Below, piece after piece: positions 8,790-27,851 of a stretch of 64,000 nucleotides of DNA. The notes under the pieces are model-generated. The model was not told where the DNA came from, did no database searches, and was given only the letters and a program-made list of their open reading frames with translations. Made by a program: the position numbers and the translations under genes. The stretch covers positions 30,081 through 94,080 of the forward strand of contig JBAZBP010000001.1 in NCBI GenBank assembly GCA_041671365.1, read 5' to 3'. Origin of the DNA: Patescibacteria group bacterium. Lineage in GTDB: Bacteria; Patescibacteriota; Patescibacteriia; Patescibacteriales; UBA12465. Each line of letters opens with the position of its first letter. The first letter of the stretch is position 1.

Positions 8790-9264
8790 TAGTTTCTTTA
8801 TTTTTGAGGTTTTTTAAAATTAAAATAATGGCTCCGCCGCTGATCATCACATCCGCCAGATTAAAAACAGTAAAATATTTTAATTCTAAATAATCAATGA
8901 CATAGCCATATATTAAGCGATCAAATATATTACTTAAAGCGCCAGTGAAAATGATACTTAGTAAAATTATTTCTAATTTACGGTCGTCTTTATAAAAAAT
9001 TAGATATATTATGTAAATCAATAGTAGGACTATTACTACTATGATTAAAGTGTTAAGAAGTAACCCTCCTAGCGGCAGAGAAAAAGCCATGTAGGAATTA
9101 GCGGTAAATTGAAAAGAAAGAATGTCTCCAATAAGTTGAAACGGTTGAATTGTTTTAAAATTTAGAGCCAACGCTTTTAAAGTCCGATCGACACTAAAAA
9201 ATATAGCTATTGCTAAAGCAATAGCTATATAGTAAAAATTATTTTTGTTTAAAAATTTATTCAT
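8782..9264 (-). CDS. lspA: Lipoprotein signal peptidase II
   Basis: 160-aa four-helix membrane ORF with DR...K and FNLADVMISGG motifs typical of LspA. Confidence 0.8.
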   Translation of the reverse strand: MNKFLNKNNFYYIAIALAIAIFFSVDRTLKALALNFKTIQPFQLIGDILSFQFTANSYMAFSLPLGGLLLNTLIIVVIVLLLIYIIYLIFYKDDRKLEIILLSIIFTGALSNIFDRLIYGYVIDYLELKYFTVFNLADVMISGGAIILILKNLKNKETIS

Positions 9265-9746: not shown

Positions 9747-9775
9747 TTGACAAGATAAAATATTTTTGCTATGAT
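9747..9775 (+). promoter_or_regulatory. Sigma-70-like promoter upstream of tRNA-Asp
   Basis: TTGACA (9747-9752), 17-nt spacer, TATGAT (9770-9775), about 90 nt upstream of the tRNA. Confidence 0.45.
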
Positions 9776-9863
9776 TTTTTTGTGGCTAGGGATAGAATGG
9801 CCATTTTTTAAGACCTATTGAAATAGCTGCTGGGGTCTAGGGTTGTGAATTTGTTATTTATTT

Positions 9864-9937
9864 GGAGTGGTAGCTCAGTTGGTTAGAGCGCCTGCCTGTC
9901 ACGCAGGAGGTCGCGGGTTCGACCCCCGTCCATTCCG
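9864..9937 (+). tRNA. tRNA-Asp (anticodon GTC), no encoded CCA
   Basis: Acceptor ggagtgg/ccattcc, anticodon stem cctgc/gcagg with loop ctGTCac, T-arm gcggg-ttcgacc-cccgt. Confidence 0.9.
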
Positions 9938-9981
9938 CTAATAAAAATATCCTAACTTTGTTAGGATATTTTTATTATTGT
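9922..9981 (+). repeat. Direct repeat copy 1 (60 bp): tRNA-Asp from mid T-loop to its 3' end, plus the terminator
   Basis: Identical base for base to 10134-10193 by direct comparison of the two strings. Confidence 0.95.
9943..9978. terminator. Bidirectional hairpin terminator (copy 1)
   Basis: 13-bp perfect stem aaaaatatcctaa / ttaggatattttt with loop ctttg. A-run on one side and T-run on the other. Confidence 0.75.
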
Positions 9982-10133
9982 ACGAGTTAGGGGGTCGAAC
10001 AGGTCAGAAGCGAGACACGAGACGAGGCGGAAGCCGAGGCGAGTAGACGAGCGATCGCAAAGTATCCGGGGGATACTTTGCGCTGACCCCGGACAAGTGA
10101 GCTCGCCGCAAAATGGCGGCGAGCGAGCGCGAA
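9982..10133 (-). repeat. GC-rich tRNA-trailer module, copy A (tRNA-Asp associated)
   Basis: 152-nt GC-rich island in AT-rich DNA. It starts with gggggtcgaac (9990-10000), the reverse complement of the tRNA-Asp T-loop/T-stem gttcgaccccc. Perfect hairpins at 10057-10081 and 10102-10123. Shares blocks (gaacaggtcagaagcgag, cgagcg repeats) with copies B-E. Strand is given as the one on which the GTTCGA motif reads forward; this choice is arbitrary. Confidence 0.8.
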
Positions 10134-10193
10134 ACCCCCGTCCATTCCGCTAATAAAAATATCCTAACTTTGTTAGGATATTTTTATTATTGT
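10134..10193 (+). repeat. Direct repeat copy 2 (60 bp): partial tRNA-Asp 3' end plus terminator
   Basis: Identical to 9922-9981. It ends exactly at the base opposite the discriminator of the convergent tRNA-Arg. Confidence 0.95.
10155..10190. terminator. Bidirectional hairpin terminator (copy 2), shared with tRNA-Arg
   Basis: Same 13-bp stem hairpin as 9943-9978. It abuts the 3' end of tRNA-Arg on the minus strand. Confidence 0.75.
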
Positions 10194-10264
10194 GCCTCCA
10201 GGGGGAATCGAACCCTCATCTTGAGTTCCGGAAACTCACGTTCTATCCATTGAACTATGGAGAC
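10193..10264 (-). tRNA. tRNA-Arg (anticodon CCG), no encoded CCA
   Basis: Minus-strand cloverleaf: acceptor gtctcca/tggaggc, anticodon stem tgagt/actca with loop ttCCGga, T-arm gaggg-ttcgatt-ccccc. Confidence 0.85.
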
Positions 10265-14652: not shown

Positions 14653-15321
14653 TTATTTTGACGCTTTAAGCTCAGTCCAAAGCATTACCCTGTTTAAAAT
14701 TTTAGAATCAATGATTTTCAACCCAGATTCATAGGCCAATCTTTCCACGTCTTCAGAACTATATGCCTTTGATTTCAATCCGCTCTGAGAATAAAATATC
14801 TCATTTTTCTCGTCAATATGACGAATTTTTATGTCGACAGCCTTATACCAATTTTTTCTATTCTCCAACGTTCCTTTAAGATAGGTTGTAATAACTATGC
14901 TCTTTTCAGTCACCTTATTAAGTTCTTTTAAAACCATAACTTCATCTTCAACATTTCCTAATGTATTCCAGACACAGAGACTAAAATCAAAATATTTTTT
15001 TGAAAAAAATTTATTTAAATTTTTTAGGTCAACATTTTCTATTTTTACATTAGAAAAATTATCTGCAATCTTTATAGATTCTTCTAGCATGAGTCTGGCG
15101 GTATCAACTCCCATAAACTCAGAAACTAACGGAGCTATTTCTGGAATAAGTCGGCCAATACCGACACCGGCCTCTAAAACTCTCTTGGCGCTACGAACCT
15201 TTTCTTTTAATAATTTAGTTTCTTGACGAATATATTCTTGATATTCTAGCGGGTAATACTCCGGGATTAGAGCTTTAAAAGGAAAATTTTTAAAATCTTC
15301 TCCCTCAAAAAAATTGGACAT
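14653..15321 (-). CDS. Class I SAM-dependent methyltransferase
   Basis: Motif I VLEAGVGIGRL. About 222 aa from MSNFFEG (ATG 15321). 19-nt gap to the radical SAM gene. Confidence 0.75.
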   Translation of the reverse strand: MSNFFEGEDFKNFPFKALIPEYYPLEYQEYIRQETKLLKEKVRSAKRVLEAGVGIGRLIPEIAPLVSEFMGVDTARLMLEESIKIADNFSNVKIENVDLKNLNKFFSKKYFDFSLCVWNTLGNVEDEVMVLKELNKVTEKSIVITTYLKGTLENRKNWYKAVDIKIRHIDEKNEIFYSQSGLKSKAYSSEDVERLAYESGLKIIDSKILNRVMLWTELKASK

Positions 15322-15370
15322 ATGATAATTATTATCTATATAATTATACCACAAAAAATCATAAACTAAC

Positions 15371-15555
15371 CGCTAGTTCGCTGTCTCACTTATCCTCTGG
15401 CAAGTGGGTCTTCAGAATTTACTAAAAATCCTTGTATTTACGGGGTTCATGGGTTTATCCGATGCTAAATTGTCTTGGCGTGGAGGGGGGGGCTGCCTGC
15501 CGGCAGGCAAGGATTTCTCGCGCTCGCTCCCGACCTGTTCGAACCCCTTTTCGAT
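15371..15555 (+). repeat. GC-rich tRNA-trailer module, copy C (diverged, no intact tRNA neighbour)
   Basis: Ends ctcgcgctcgctcccgacctgttcgaacccc (GTTCGAACCCC at 15537-15547), like the other copies. Hairpin tgcctg-ccgg-caggca at 15494-15509. Upstream block ctcacttatcc resembles ctcacttgtcc in copy A. The 5' boundary is uncertain. Confidence 0.6.
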
Positions 15556-15559
15556 ATGC

Positions 15560-15593
15560 AAAATTAAAATACCCAATGGGTGTTTTAATTTTC
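15560..15593. terminator. Bidirectional hairpin terminator next to module C
   Basis: Stem aaattaaaataccc / gggtgttttaattt (with G-U pairs), loop aat, flanked by A and T runs. Confidence 0.6.
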
Positions 15594-15677
15594 TACGCGG
15601 AGTGTTATAGATGTTATCAGAACTGAGATGTTTAAAAACATCAGCAAACATTAAAATTTTTCGCTCGCCCGATATAA

Positions 15678-16334
15678 TTAATTTAATTCTAAAAATTGAC
15701 CCTCACTAATAATTTTCACATCACCGTTGTCAACCTTCACCGCTGACATATCATCCAGAACATAAATTTTCTTTTTAATATCCTTGGTTGCGCTTAAAAC
15801 ACCTTCTTTGTTTCTTAGATAAAAATGAGGACTATTATAATGAGGAAGCGCATAAAAATCAACAAAATTAAGCCCAGATAAATTTTCTGTTTTTTCTAAA
15901 TCTTCTTCATATAATTTCTGCAAAATATTTAATATTAAATCCGGACTAACAATCATACTCCCGGCACTAATACCGACATAAACTTTTGTTTTTAAAAATT
16001 CCGGCAACAAAGCAGCCAAACCGGATTTGCTCACCCATTCCATAAGATGAAAAGTGTTTCCACCCTCAAAAAATAAAATATCTGCCTTTTGCAATTGAGG
16101 CTCCCAAATATTTCTATCGACGGCGGAAATATCAACTATGCTTATAGACTGTAAATTTAATTCTTTGAGAGTTAAAAGATCTTTAATCACCCATCGTTTA
16201 TCTCCCTTTTCCACATTGGAAGCGGTGGGAATAAAAGCTAGAGATGTTTCCCTCGGCCTTTTACTGACTAAATCAAAAAGGGCTTTTTTAATAGAATCAT
16301 TGGAAATGCCGGCTGATGTTAATAATAATTTCAT
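15678..16334 (-). CDS. Peptidase E-like / S51 family (type-1 glutamine-amidotransferase-like fold)
   Basis: 218-aa ORF. MKLLLTSAGI start, FFEGGNTFHL and GISAGSMI (nucleophile Ser) motifs typical of dipeptidase E relatives. Confidence 0.7.
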   Translation of the reverse strand: MKLLLTSAGISNDSIKKALFDLVSKRPRETSLAFIPTASNVEKGDKRWVIKDLLTLKELNLQSISIVDISAVDRNIWEPQLQKADILFFEGGNTFHLMEWVSKSGLAALLPEFLKTKVYVGISAGSMIVSPDLILNILQKLYEEDLEKTENLSGLNFVDFYALPHYNSPHFYLRNKEGVLSATKDIKKKIYVLDDMSAVKVDNGDVKIISEGQFLELN

Positions 16335-16423
16335 ACAAAATTAATAAATATTGAATAATATAATTATAGCTAAAATTATCGAAAAAATCAATTTAATCTT
16401 AAATTAGGACCATAATATTTTAC

Positions 16424-16564
16424 CTACGCTCGCCGTCGCTCGCTCATTCGTTGTCCAGAACTTGCGTCCGACCTGCCCCCGGCAGGTCGTCAGACGCTCG
16501 CTGCAATATTCGCCTGCTGGCGAATATTTAGCTCGCTTCAAGTTTGTTCGAATCCCGTCGACGA
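16424..16564 (+). repeat. GC-rich tRNA-trailer module, copy D
   Basis: 109/113 identity between 16444-16556 and copy E 26090-26202 (counted by hand). Perfect hairpins at 16469-16489 and 16505-16528. GTTCGAATCCC at 16546-16556 differs at 1 of 11 positions from the tRNA-Ser T-loop/T-stem gttcaaatccc. Confidence 0.8.
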
Positions 16565-16566
16565 AT

Positions 16567-16601
16567 AAAAAAACAGCAGCATAAAATGCTGCTATTTTTT
16601 T
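16567..16601. terminator. Bidirectional hairpin terminator between module D and motif F2
   Basis: A7 run, stem agcagc / gctgct with loop ataaaat, then a T7 run. Confidence 0.65.
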
Positions 16602-16640
16602 ATGCGGAGAGGGTGGGACGCACTTGGAAAGGTTATCAAG
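16602..16640 (-). repeat. tRNA-Ser-3'-end-like motif, copy F2 (candidate att remnant)
   Basis: Plus-strand tgcggagagggtggga (16603-16619) matches the 3' end of the tRNA-Ser gene (18470-18486) at 16 of 17 positions, in the same orientation. The rest aligns with F1. Confidence 0.55.
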
Positions 16641-16645
16641 TAATC

Positions 16646-17527
16646 CTATTTTGAAAATTTGAATGTTGCCAGTATTCCATTACCAATTGCAATGGGATCA
16701 AAATTCTGGTCCTTGTTGGCTGGGCGCTCCATTATTTGTAACCAGGAAGCATCAAAAAATACTGCGATAATCTGGCCAGCACTATCGCCCTCAAAACCGC
16801 CAATATCAGTTCCCTTGATAGCAAGGAATGATGAACCATCAACAACGATTTGTGATTCCTGCCAATTCTTTAACGATTTTTTATATGAAGCTATTATACT
16901 TTCACGAGTATTACGTTCGTCGTATCTATTTAGATAAAAAAATGAGTTATCACCTCCAATATCTGTCGTATAATATGGAGATTTTGCTATAAGAATATGA
17001 TTTTGAGCCTCCTTCACTTCAAACCCGGAAGGAACTTTAAACGACAGAGTAAAATAAGATGATTTAAATGGGAGCCAATCCGTAGAGAGTTGAGAAACTA
17101 ATATCATTTCTAGATTTTTATTGGTAATTCCTAGCCCTAGATTTCTCATAATATTAAAAGCGTCAGTAGGATTACCTAAAAAATACATCTTTAAATTAAC
17201 CGGATTAACATAATAGGCTTTTCCGCTATCTTCAACTTTTAATAGGATCTTACCTGATAATCTACTAGGGGCTAGTTCATTAAATAAATTAAAATCTTTA
17301 TTGGAAATACCCAGTCCCAATTCACGCATAACTTGAAAAGCATCGGCTGGTCTTCCTAAAAAATATCTCTGAGAATTATTAGGATTAACATACCAAGCTT
17401 CACCACGAGATTCTACTTGCAAGAGAATCCGTCCTTTTAATCGGCTAGATGTATCGCCGGCAAAACTATTATTAAAAGGGAAAAATAATAAGATAGCGGT
17501 TAGGACAAGGAAAATAATTTTTTTCAT
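16646..17527 (-). CDS. Secreted protein with two tandem ~55-aa repeats, unknown function
   Basis: Start at MKKIIFLVLTAILLFFPFNNSFAG (signal peptide, ATG 17527). The repeat SRLKGRILLQVESRGEAWYVNP...GLGISNKDF is followed by SRLSGKILLKVEDSGKAYYVNP...GLGITNKNL. Confidence 0.65.
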   Translation of the reverse strand: MKKIIFLVLTAILLFFPFNNSFAGDTSSRLKGRILLQVESRGEAWYVNPNNSQRYFLGRPADAFQVMRELGLGISNKDFNLFNELAPSRLSGKILLKVEDSGKAYYVNPVNLKMYFLGNPTDAFNIMRNLGLGITNKNLEMILVSQLSTDWLPFKSSYFTLSFKVPSGFEVKEAQNHILIAKSPYYTTDIGGDNSFFYLNRYDERNTRESIIASYKKSLKNWQESQIVVDGSSFLAIKGTDIGGFEGDSAGQIIAVFFDASWLQIMERPANKDQNFDPIAIGNGILATFKFSK

Positions 17528-17558
17528 AATGTTTATGGTATGATATTCTGATTTTGAA

Positions 17559-18242
17559 TTACCTAAATCGAAAACTCTTATAAAATTCTTCAAAATTATT
17601 AGATTTAACGGCCCCATTAGATAACACATAAGTTATCTGATTCCTTTCCACCACCACAATATTAAATTCCCACGTCGGAATATTTTTCTCTAGTTCACTA
17701 TTAGTTATAACTAATAATGTTCCAGCCAAACCATTAATTACCACTGGTAATTTCTTGATTATAGAATGCCCGGCACGATCTTTCTCCGTCAATTCTTGAT
17801 CAGAAATTACCCGCGCCGCAGATCTATTGGTATCAATGTTAATAAATAATTCCCCATCATTATTTGGGTCTTGATTATTTTTTCCAAAAGCTACTCCAGT
17901 CGATGTTGAGGAACCAAATATTTTCCAATCCGCTGGATATTTTACTTCATAACCGTATTTTTCGTTATGATAGGTTTGCCAATCCGTATTAGTTTGATTG
18001 GGAATAATTGAACTATTACTATTTTGATTAGCTGAGTTTGTTTTTATCGCCTCATTTTCTTTTAAAAGCTCACCATTCTGCTTTTTCAAATCTTGAACCT
18101 GGGCATTTAAGTTATTGGCCTGCTCTTGTGATAAAGAAACAGGTTGATTCGACGCCGAATTATCAACCACCGGCTTTTGCGTCAATGAACAGCCTGCTAT
18201 TAGCAGAGCCAAAATTGGAAACAAAATTAAAATCTTTTTCAT
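17559..18242 (-). CDS. Lipoprotein, unknown function
   Basis: Signal plus lipobox MKKILILFPILALLIAGC, a low-complexity Q/N-rich linker, then a globular C-terminal part. Confidence 0.65.
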   Translation of the reverse strand: MKKILILFPILALLIAGCSLTQKPVVDNSASNQPVSLSQEQANNLNAQVQDLKKQNGELLKENEAIKTNSANQNSNSSIIPNQTNTDWQTYHNEKYGYEVKYPADWKIFGSSTSTGVAFGKNNQDPNNDGELFINIDTNRSAARVISDQELTEKDRAGHSIIKKLPVVINGLAGTLLVITNSELEKNIPTWEFNIVVVERNQITYVLSNGAVKSNNFEEFYKSFRFR

Positions 18243-18436
18243 AAAATTACATCAAAATGATTAATCTAATTTAAAATTACCACAAAACCCTCAAAAAATC
18301 AATTTTAGTAAAGGTAAAAAAATATTAGACTAATGACTTTGGAACGCTAATTTTTTCTTAAACATTAAAAAAATACACTAATTTACTCCAGATTATTCGT
18401 AACTCCCTGCAACGCTTTGGAACTATATGGATATCA

Positions 18437-18462
18437 AAAAATAAGGCGTTAACCTTATTTTT
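18437..18462 (-). terminator. Rho-independent terminator of tRNA-Ser
   Basis: 10-bp stem aaaaataagg / ccttattttt with a 6-nt loop, 10 nt past the tRNA 3' end. Confidence 0.65.
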
Positions 18463-18471
18463 GACAATCTG

Positions 18472-18558
18472 CGGAGAGGGAGGGATTTGAACCCTCGATG
18501 CCCTTTCAGGCATACCGGTTTTCGAGACCAGCGCACTAAACCACTATGCGACCTCTCC
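18472..18558 (-). tRNA. tRNA-Ser (anticodon CGA), no encoded CCA
   Basis: Minus-strand cloverleaf: acceptor ggagagg/cctctcc, anticodon stem ctggt/accgg with loop ctCGAaa, long variable arm atgcctgaaagggcat, T-arm gaggg-ttcaaat-ccctc. Confidence 0.9.
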
Positions 18559-25517: not shown

Positions 25518-26047
25518 ATATTTGTGTGTGTTTTCGAGTATAACGGAGAATTTAGTTTTTGCCAAATTACAAAGTTAAATTTAGAAACAAAAAAGAGGCT
25601 CATAAAAGTCTTTTGTTATTATTTATAGACTGTTTTGAGCCTCCATTCCTGAATTTATCAGGATTAATTAAAGGGCATTTGCTAACTTAAATGCGTCGTT
25701 CTTACCAACTTTTAGCAAATTTATTTTATATTTTTTACTAATTTTAGATGAAATCTAGTAAAAGTTTCTTTTTGATTTTTATCAGATTTAATCTTAATTG
25801 ATTAGTTGTGTAATTTGCTCGGTTTAATTTCTTATTAAAATTCTTTGTCACGTTAGCATTGACAATGTTTTTATAAAAGTTAGTTAAAGAACTTATAATT
25901 ATTATAGCATCTAAAATAAATAAGGTCAAATATTGTAGACTTAAATAGATAATATTAAATTATTTATTTAATATTAGTAAAATTATTGAATTTTATATGA
26001 ATGTATTAGTATTTAAGTCCACGCCATTTTAGACTTAAAATTAATAT

Positions 26048-26056
26048 TTATACACA
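26048..26056 (+). promoter_or_regulatory. DnaA-box consensus match (TTATACACA)
   Basis: Fits TTATNCACA exactly. Confidence 0.35.
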
Positions 26057-26067
26057 AAAAACACAGG

Positions 26068-26076
26068 TTATCCACA
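26068..26076 (+). promoter_or_regulatory. DnaA-box perfect consensus (TTATCCACA)
   Basis: Exact match to the canonical 9-mer. Same orientation as the box at 26048 and 20 bp from it. Confidence 0.35.
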
Positions 26077-26085
26077 GATTTTAGT

Positions 26086-26210
26086 ACGGTCATTCGTTGT
26101 TCAGAACTTGCGTCCGACCTGCCCCCGGCAGGTCGTCAGACGCTCGCTGCAATATTCGCCTGCTGGCGAATATCTGGCTCGCTTCAAGTTTGTTCGACTC
26201 CCATTACAAT
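26086..26210 (+). repeat. GC-rich tRNA-trailer module, copy E (tRNA-Cys associated)
   Basis: Near-identical to copy D. Contains gttcgactccca (26192-26203), which is the T-loop/T-stem of the convergent tRNA-Cys in inverted orientation (12/12). Hairpin at 26115-26135. Confidence 0.8.
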
Positions 26211-26216
26211 AAATTT

Positions 26217-26254
26217 CAAACATAAAAGACAGCCGATGCTGTCTTTTATGTTTG
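26217..26254. terminator. Bidirectional hairpin terminator shared by tRNA-Cys and module E
   Basis: caaacataaaagacag-ccgatg-ctgtcttttatgtttg: a long perfect stem that directly abuts the tRNA-Cys 3' end. Confidence 0.7.
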
Positions 26255-26328
26255 AGGCTTGAGTGGGAGTCGAACCCACGAATGGCAGTTTTGCAAACTG
26301 CAGCGTTAGACCACTTCGCCATCAAGCC
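26255..26328 (-). tRNA. tRNA-Cys (anticodon GCA), no encoded CCA
   Basis: Minus-strand cloverleaf: acceptor ggcttga/tcaagcc, anticodon stem gcagt/actgc with loop ttGCAaa, T-arm gtggg-ttcgact-cccac. Only 26 nt downstream of the tsaD stop. Confidence 0.9.
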
Positions 26329-27484: not shown

Positions 27485-27513
27485 TTGACAGAAAGGAGTT
27501 TTGTCTATAAAAT
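27485..27513 (+). promoter_or_regulatory. Sigma-70-like promoter upstream of tRNA-Glu
   Basis: TTGACA (27485-27490), 17-nt spacer, TAAAAT (27508-27513), about 55 nt upstream of the tRNA. Confidence 0.45.
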
Positions 27514-27569: not shown

Positions 27570-27641
27570 GGTCCCTTCGTCTAGTGGTTAGGACGTCAGG
27601 TTTTCATCCTGTTAACAGGGGTTCGATTCCCCTAGGGACTA
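27570..27641 (+). tRNA. tRNA-Glu (anticodon TTC), no encoded CCA
   Basis: Acceptor ggtccct/agggact (G1-U72), anticodon loop ttTTCat, T-arm agggg-ttcgatt-cccct. Closely parallels the E. coli tRNA-Glu layout. Confidence 0.9.
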
Positions 27642-27647
27642 CTAACT

Positions 27648-27679
27648 AAAAAATACTCAGCGTATGTTGAGTATTTTTT
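27648..27679. terminator. Bidirectional hairpin terminator after tRNA-Glu
   Basis: aaaaaatactca-gcgtatgt-tgagtatttttt. Confidence 0.7.
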
Positions 27680-27690
27680 AGTTTATATTC

Positions 27691-27834
27691 AAGGTGGGGA
27701 ATCGAACAGGTCAGAAGCGAGCTTAACCGAAGGCCAGTAGGCCGAGGTGTAGCGAGCGTCGGACGAAGCTCCGGGGGAGCTTCGGACGCTGACCGCGACA
27801 ACGAACGAGCGGACTGGTCCGCGAGTGAGGCGAA
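27691..27834 (-). repeat. GC-rich tRNA-trailer module, copy B (tRNA-Glu associated)
   Basis: Starts with ggggaatcgaac (27696-27707), the reverse complement of the tRNA-Glu gttcgattcccc (12/12), then gaacaggtcagaagcgag as in copy A. Hairpins at 27764-27784 and 27809-27822. Ends ggcgaaa just before the repeated tRNA 3' end. Confidence 0.8.
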
Positions 27835-27851
27835 ATTCCCCTAGGGACTAC
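27835..27851 (+). repeat. 17-bp direct repeat of the tRNA-Glu 3' end (attcccctagggactac)
   Basis: Identical to 27626-27642 inside tRNA-Glu. Flanking bases differ on both sides. Confidence 0.85.

Follow-up and report, generated by a model that had tools for sequence, protein, structure and literature searches.

A conserved hairpin module behind tRNA genes of Patescibacteria as the possible core of a small mobile cassette

The locus studied here raises the question why homologous hairpins in one stretch of bacterial DNA keep perfect pairing while their stem sequences differ, and what these hairpins are part of. The stretch, referred to below as the window, comprises 64,000 nucleotides of AT-rich (about 33% GC) housekeeping DNA from a Patescibacteria group bacterium. 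The preliminary description had listed hairpins in five repeated copies (A to E) and had proposed that their structure is under selection, either as RNA or as a single-stranded or cruciform DNA hairpin. Hairpin A (gcaaagtatcc-ggg-ggatactttgc) lies at 10057-10081 as described, with a stem that is actually 12 bp long (10056-10082). The coordinates and the perfect 9-bp stems of hairpins B, D and E also agree with the sequence, D and E being identical and on the other strand. When read on the strand of the neighbouring tRNA, all four loops are CC-GGG-GG, and the claim that these four hairpins are homologous, perfectly paired and different in stem sequence holds. The palindrome tgcctgccggcaggca listed for copy C (15494-15509) exists, but it is not homologous to the other four and belongs to a separate insert. 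The additional copy-specific hairpins at 10102-10123 (A), 27809-27822 (B) and 16505-16528 (D) were found as well; they are helix P5 in A and B and helix P3 in D of a larger fold. What had been missed is the membership of the hairpins in a five-helix module, the tie of this module to tRNA 3' ends, its mobility, and the different nature of hairpin C.

The hairpin under study is helix P4 of a GC-rich module of ~165 nt, which has a three-way-junction fold with helices P1-P5. Five islands of ~60% GC in the window are copies of this one module (Table 1). Perfect GC-rich hairpins with a stem of at least 9 bp occur five times in the window, every one inside a module, against a mean of 0.07 in 30 dinucleotide shuffles, and the 5' motif of the module, TCGAACA-N5-GRAGCGAG, also occurs five times (0.08 expected). 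The copies differ in completeness: unit D has lost the P1 3' strand and the tRNA copy, unit E is without P5, the P1 3' strand and the tRNA copy, and module C is a 5' remnant of which ~35 nt are kept (18.8 bits with the covariance model). In this remnant the guide GGGGTTCGAAC is followed by GGTCGGGAGCGAG, and the unrelated palindromic insert interrupts the sequence.

Table 1. Positions of the tRNA-associated units and their parts in the window
Feature	Position	Strand	Remarks
tRNA-Asp(GTC), host gene of unit A	9864..9938	+	sigma70-like promoter 9747-9775
Unit A terminator-like palindrome (A-tract, hairpin, T-tract) and spacer	9939..9989	+	
Left copy of perfect 60-nt direct repeat, unit A	9922-9981	+	
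Module A guide / P1 5' strand GGGGGTCGAAC	9990..10000	+	reverse complement of tRNA-Asp T-loop/T-stem 53-63
Module A body	10001..10133	+	conserved GCGAA immediately before repeat
Module A P2	10002-10007 with 10083-10088	+	
Module A P3	about 10011-10055	+	
Module A P4 (hairpin under study)	10056-10082	+	
Module A P5	10101-10124	+	
Right copy of 60-nt direct repeat	10134..10193	+	P1 3' strand and second terminator copy
Copy of tRNA-Asp positions 58-76, P1 3' strand of unit A	10134-10151	+	
tRNA-Arg(CCG)	10192-10264	-	abuts right 60-nt repeat
tRNA-Glu(TTC), host gene of unit B	27570..27642	+	promoter 27485-27513
Unit B	27643..27851	+	terminator and spacer 27643-27695
Unit B guide GGGGAATCGAAC	27696-27707	+	
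Unit B P2	27709-27714 with 27789-27794	+	
Unit B P4	27764-27784	+	
Unit B P5	about 27805-27826	+	
Unit B copy of tRNA-Glu 58-76, ATTCCCCTAGGGACTAC	27835-27851	+	
Unit D	16379..16625	-	degenerate tRNA-Ser-like 3' fragment TTCCAAGTGCGTCCCACCCTCTCCGCA, terminator, module
Module D	16565-16379	-	97 bits; P4 16469-16489, P3 16505-16528
Unit E	26032..26328	-	tRNA-Cys(GCA) 26254-26328, terminator, truncated module
Module E, truncated	26211 to about 26085	-	92 bits; P4 26115-26135
Unit C remnant	15456..15600	-	tRNA-Ser-like 3' fragment, terminator, first ~35 nt of module

When copies A and B were folded independently with RNA parameters, the same architecture was obtained (z = -3.3 and -3.2). P1 is the closing helix, P2 has 6 bp (GGTCAG/CTGACC in A and B, AACTTG/CAAGTT in D and E), the long hairpin P3 is broken by tandem G.A pairs, P5 is a further hairpin, and the strands joining the three-way junction are conserved and purine-rich. 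The covariation test on a larger alignment that had been suggested was carried out with covariance model R1, which aligned 133 copies (123 distinct). In this alignment, whose pair counts have to be read with the caveat that it was fitted to the model, standard pairs occupied 87.2% of the cells, compared with 64.9% after shuffling (none of 500 shuffles reached the observed value) and 33-41% when the 3' partner was slid by 1-3 columns. An independent MAFFT alignment analysed with RNAalifold yielded the same helices. Double changes were found in 48 of the 53 pairs. P4 was paired in 97.8% of the cells and had compensatory double changes in 10 of its 11 pairs, one column pair being represented by AU 38, CG 34, GC 27 and UA 21 times; P1 was 88% paired. 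These results support the proposed selection on structure. The P4 stems occur in a few discrete variants (AATATCC, ATATGCC, AAGCTCC, ACCTGCC, ACTTGCC and CTAAGCATCC in alignments A2/A3), whose recurrence across otherwise different subfamilies suggests frequent recombination between modules. The idea that the variable P4 bases are a specificity code was dropped; comparison by eye, with no statistic, revealed no association with tRNA type or flanks.

Non-canonical pairs were distributed asymmetrically (G.U/U.G 313 vs A.C/C.A 100; G.A/A.G 494 vs U.C/C.U 24), and the tRNA-sense strand gave the more stable fold in 107 of 109 modules, which argues that one specific strand, the tRNA-sense strand, folds. 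This strand has an RNA-like look, owing to GGAA (GNRA-type) tetraloops, the many G.U pairs, the tandem G.A pairs and the conservation of purines in the junction. The consensus fold was obtained with RNA energy parameters; with DNA parameters it was not recovered for copy A, whose two strands both gave z values of about -2.3 to -2.5 and thus were not distinguished.

The module is linked to tRNA genes by a fixed order of elements: tRNA 3' end, A-tract, hairpin, T-tract, a spacer of ~15 nt and then GGGAUUCGAAC. Modules share the strand of the tRNA gene and follow it at a distance of ~40-50 nt. Their first ~11 nt are reverse-complementary to the tRNA T-loop/T-stem (positions 53-64), the 3' end is a sense copy of tRNA position 58 to 73/76, and P1 is formed by pairing of this 5' segment, the guide, with the module's own 3' tRNA copy. 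At least 10 tRNA species are used in this way (Ala, Asp, Cys, Gln, Glu, Gly, four Ser isoacceptors, Trp and Val). Contiguous complementarity of the guide to the upstream tRNA was on average 11.1 nt (n=45), against 7.1 nt to non-cognate tRNAs, a match that amounts to the essentially universal GTTCGA. The guide always fits the module's own 3' copy, even where the upstream fragment differs (loci L114 and L217), which makes P1 a selected property inherent to the module. At L217 a tRNA-Ala-type module stands behind an intact tRNA-Val, an arrangement that points to the very 3' end, and not the T-loop, as the insertion site.

Taken with the strong covariation and the fold specific to the tRNA-sense strand, the constant tRNA orientation of the modules and the terminator that usually follows them would suit a structured non-coding RNA that is made by read-through from the strong tRNA promoter or started at an unrecognised one, and whose 3' end mimics the 3' half of the cognate tRNA as a decoy, regulator or processing substrate, with mobility being secondary. 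The GNRA-type loops, the tandem G.A pairs, the purine-rich junction and the agreement of the RNA minimum-energy folds of A and B (z about -3.2) fit this explanation, but a long-T-tract terminator is located ~15 nt upstream of every module. Between this terminator and the module neither a conserved -10 box nor a promoter-scan match was found, whereas 11/12 sigma70 promoters precede tRNA-Asp and tRNA-Glu. Truncated copies persist, modules are absent from most syntenic tRNA loci of relatives, Rfam gives no match, and the acceptor 5' strand needed for a tRNA-like minihelix is missing. Neither an own promoter nor conservation at orthologous loci, the two marks of an independent sRNA gene, was detected. 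On balance we regard the non-coding RNA as rather unlikely. A tRNA-like minihelix or split tRNA was rejected because the spacer is without a 5' acceptor strand.

An RNA could also act as a guide. A conserved scaffold of ~150 nt followed by a variable, tRNA-matching 3' segment of 16-19 nt, a 5' segment complementary to an uninterrupted target, the retargeting to at least 10 tRNA species with an unchanged scaffold, and the arrays of cassettes at tRNA 3' ends would all be expected if the module were a guide RNA for a recombinase, transposase or nuclease encoded elsewhere, the antisense segment (53-64) and the 16-19-nt sense segment (58-76) gripping both strands of the tRNA gene and directing cassettes there. 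Such an RNA would be comparable to IS110 bridge RNAs, TnpB omega/reRNAs and the tRNA-homing guide of type V-K CAST. However, the two putative guides pair with each other in P1, which would mask both, no promoter and no associated protein gene were found near the loci, and a search of Rfam at E-values up to 10 gave no match to known families of omega or bridge RNA. This explanation thus appears improbable.

That the modules move is shown by several observations. Near-identical modules in different contexts keep the upstream terminator and spacer and not the downstream flank (20 cases vs 0), and the boundaries of the duplicates fall inside the tRNA-3' repeat; the repeated unit therefore consists of terminator, spacer, module and tRNA copy. 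Loci L151 and L191 share about 90-95% identity around tRNA-Glu, and L151 contains two extra units exactly between the tRNA-Glu 3' end and the downstream flank, with a 17-19-nt repeat, each extra unit ending in ATTCCCCTAGGGGCTAC. The terminator heading the first unit of L151 is located at the distal end of the array in L191, so the order of the cassettes has been shuffled between the two. An automated search for unit-sized indels returned this kind of clean occupied/empty pair only once. Tandem arrays are common (loci L038, L103, L155 and L180 among them), and in three genomes that share ftsX-tRNA-Gln the modules and small ORFs following tRNA-Gln differ. Eight syntenic relatives were picked via TsaD alone, blind to the presence of modules; the order tRNA-Glu, tsaD, tRNA-Cys, ychF is conserved among them, and a module was present behind tRNA-Glu in two and behind tRNA-Cys in one of the eight. 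The tRNA-Asp module is absent from L296, the sole relative whose fetched locus includes the tRNA-Asp/tRNA-Arg pair. Besides the truncated copies D and E and remnant C, a chimeric copy exists (L171). Taking into account the arrays, the occupied/empty pair, the patchy presence and the truncated copies, the modules are dispensable, recently moving insertions and not conserved partners of the tRNAs. Two ectopic insertions (L180 copy 3 and L202) point to crossing over in the acceptor-3' portion of the repeat.

Direct repeats of the tRNA 3' part flank the insert at an intact tRNA in units A and B of the window, in the comparison of L151 with L191, and in 45 cognate cases. The repeat of copy A is exceptional: it is perfect over 60 nt and covers tRNA-Asp 58-76 together with the whole bidirectional terminator common to tRNA-Arg, whereas other units repeat only 17-19 nt. 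This suggests that copy A arose by a very recent or a mechanistically different event. Priming by a mature tRNA, as in a retro-element, was considered and rejected: the copies are without CCA and the copy A repeat includes the terminator, from which it follows that the tRNA copies derive from the gene or the primary transcript.

Such repeats are the classic footprint of tRNA-integrating elements, and they could be read as inert scars, that is, as leftover att-arm DNA of tRNA-integrating islands, spread only through recombination between homologous tRNA repeats or uptake facilitated by that homology, with the hairpins as incidental GC-rich palindromes. ORF-bearing segments with degenerate tRNA-3' fragments in the same arrays and the failure to find a recombinase nearby agree with scars. 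Inert DNA, however, would not preserve 48 of 53 pairs by compensatory changes, nor would one expect of it a strand-specific excess of G.U and G.A pairs, junction nucleotides without variation and, across >100 divergent loci, co-variation of the guide with the tRNA copy. Covariation largely refutes this explanation, and we consider it very improbable.

No integrase, transposase, recombinase or reverse transcriptase was found by Pfam among about 40 of the 52 ORFs of the window, and the proteins enriched in the neighbourhood of 118 module loci were housekeeping only (ftsX/ftsE, smpB, trigger factor, tsaD), with no recombinase. The cassette is thus non-autonomous, and the enzyme mobilising it is hypothetical.

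We favour, with a probability of roughly 0.45, the interpretation that a small non-autonomous mobile cassette homing to tRNA 3' ends has the P4 hairpin module as its conserved core, and that this module functions as a cis element folded from a single strand. The cassette consists of the terminator-like palindrome, the ~15-nt spacer, the module and the copy of tRNA 58-73/76. Its place immediately behind a tRNA gene or tRNA-3'-like fragment leaves the tRNA unbroken and lets arrays accumulate. The tRNA-sense strand folds into the three-way junction and carries an internal guide of ~11 nt that complements the T-loop/T-stem (53-64) of the uninterrupted cognate tRNA target; pairing of the guide with the tRNA copy at the module 3' end closes the fold as P1. 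In the proposed mechanism P2-P5, with their tandem G.A pairs and conserved junction strands, may serve as a scaffold read by a trans-acting enzyme. P1 and the unpaired acceptor-3' tail would imitate the T-arm-plus-tail shape of the sense strand of the tRNA gene, and a recombinase or transposase encoded elsewhere would recognise the folded single-stranded element. As no promoter was found between the upstream terminator and the module, we lean slightly towards single-stranded DNA rather than RNA as the active form; DNA is likewise favoured by the presence of a terminator upstream and by the triloops C-GNA-G and GGG. Counted against the mobile cassette are the RNA-like features, the recovery of the fold with RNA parameters, the failure to find a mobilising enzyme, the single clean occupied/empty pair, the arrangement at L217 and the 60-nt repeat of copy A.

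Mini-hairpins with C-GNA-G triloops, a motif known for unusual stability in DNA, stand just before the module in the spacers of 17 of 104 distinct units, all of one subfamily. They have the forms GCCTCG[A/T/C]AGAGGC and TTGCG[A/T/C]AGCAA, in which the middle loop base varies (e.g. L155 6763-6779 and L180 7596-7608).

The logic of the favoured mobile cassette may be compared to that of integron attC sites or IS200/IS605-type ends. As in attC sites, structure is conserved over sequence and the site is strand-specific; cassettes stack beside a fixed anchor, their order is shuffled between genomes, and the DNA after the cassette supplies part of the closing duplex. In attC sites R''/L'' and L'/R' boxes (RYYYAAC ... 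GTTRRRY) flank an unpaired spacer. The 5' (G/A)TCGAAC of the modules fits RYYYAAC in part, their 3' GCG-RWA is followed by the tRNA copy, and there is no GTTRRRY. As regards intI/attI, no Phage_integrase domain was seen in about 40 window ORFs and no recombinase cluster near the 118 loci. Unlike attC, the modules have a tRNA 3' end as anchor and form a three-way junction of ~165 nt with strongly conserved sequence motifs, and unlike integron cassettes they carry a tRNA 3' copy and a terminator.

With the IS200/IS605 PATE and REP/BIME elements (Y1 HUH) the modules share a small, GC-rich, hairpin-bearing, protein-less form at gene 3' ends, and would share the use of single-stranded DNA on one strand and the reading of target or cleavage sites by pairing with an internal guide. 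The one-strand specificity of such structured ends has its counterpart in the excess of G.T and G.A pairs on the tRNA-sense strand. In contrast to these systems, no TnpA/RAYT was found near the modules, the guide matches ~11 nt of the intact target by Watson-Crick complementarity, a 17-19-nt copy of this target is part of the element, and a multi-helix junction takes the place of simple subterminal hairpins.

The direct repeat from the T-loop (58) to the tRNA 3' end, the intact tRNA and the accretion of tandem units at one tRNA are also properties of tRNA-integrating islands and CIMEs (tyrosine integrases, T-loop class). The module units differ from them in being about 0.25 kb long with a conserved structured body, and in that the sequence left of the module repeat does not match the overlap with the T-loop that a double-stranded att core should show; an element-encoded or neighbouring tyrosine integrase was not found in the scanned window ORFs or at the 118 loci. 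The pairing of one segment with both sides of the insertion point and retargeting by base-pairing rules recall the internal guides of group I/II introns and the IS110 bridge RNA. Unlike these, the module is only ~165 nt long, has no intron core motifs or Rfam match and no reverse transcriptase or DEDD recombinase nearby, and is only putatively transcribed. The TIGR (Tas) guide arrays of CPR consist of tandem ~36-nt units with box C/D-like motifs (PMC12045711). Membership in this system was rejected, as the modules are ~165 nt long, without box C/D motifs and not in tight tandem.

A search with nhmmer yielded 146 module copies in 118 AT-rich loci. Pattern scans found homologues only in AT-rich contigs, and the informative titles were those of Patescibacteria, including a Falkowbacteria MAG. 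Five loci are labelled 'uncultured Gammaproteobacteria'; with 33-37% GC and Patescibacteria-like tRNA and terminator contexts, these labels are probably wrong. In IMG/VR viral contigs 67 pattern matches were obtained and the covariance model confirmed none of them, so the modules are not a phage feature in IMG/VR. With Rfam at the gathering threshold only tRNAs scored in the window and 20 related loci, and a search of 9850-10250 at E-values up to 10 gave weak chance matches only. A description of the module was not found in a full-text literature search. The structured, tRNA-addressed mobile cassettes are a well-supported new family, absent from Rfam. Twelve matches are cut at, or within 2 nt of, the sequence end, and three further loci have matches at contig ends. 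That cut matches lie mostly at contig ends is consistent with fragmentation of assemblies by the multi-copy module repeats.

Other small elements were noticed in the same regions. The insert that interrupts module C is a GC palindrome of 16-26 nt, (G)CCTGCCTGCCGGCAGGCAGG(C), located at 15490-15512 of the window and at other positions in 11 other loci; its insertion sites are module tRNA copies, P3 and apparently the anticodon-loop region of a tRNA-Gln-like gene (L168, ~1140-1180). It would seem to be another mobile element, a palindrome smaller still than the cassette. Small ORF-bearing segments of the arrays behind tRNA genes have a T-loop-like motif, (A)GTTCCAA(A/G), at their ends, which may be a second type of attachment site. 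The motif is present in the window at 18425-18434, 18346-18354 (minus strand) and ~16600-16625, in L180 at 8024, 8526, 9140-9170 and 9707, and in seven other loci; a conserved 28-nt form, GTTCCAAnTATATCCCAACCTCGGAGCA, follows diverse ORFs. Positions 14653-18558 of the window (minus strand) are an array downstream of tRNA-Ser(CGA) with a PsbP-like ORF, a 327-aa ORF without Pfam match, module D, an S51 peptidase, remnant module C and a methyltransferase, and resemble variable cassette arrays behind tRNA-Gln, tRNA-Gly and tRNA-Glu in other genomes. Near unit E, a perfect DnaA-box consensus, TTATCCACA (26068-26076), adjoins a stretch of ~450 nt with 19-24% GC between ychF and tRNA-Cys (25600-26080). 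The box and its flank are conserved in L296 (7236-7270), and the cumulative GC skew has its minimum at about 19-23 kb, near the box; this region may be a replication origin.

A wider reading would make the cassettes a guide-based homing system: protein-less cassettes that, by ~11-nt pairing of their folded strand (RNA or single-stranded DNA) with the T-arm of a chosen tRNA gene, insert behind this tRNA, build integron-like arrays with modules and small cargo genes, and could be retargeted by changing guide and tRNA copy together. We hold this to be distinctly doubtful. In a bolder variant, the module RNA would be a splint with a spare tRNA 3' half (58-76) that repairs tRNAs cut in the T-loop.

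In Patescibacteria, whose genomes are tiny and in which few repeats have been recognised, a widespread family of strongly structured, tRNA-addressed cassettes would therefore be a new route of genome variation. The cassettes appear to organise variable gene arrays behind tRNA genes. Because guide and target are related by an explicit rule (positions 53-64, with co-variation in at least 10 tRNA species), the targeting mechanism is directly testable, and reprogramming of the system would be possible should there be a partner enzyme.
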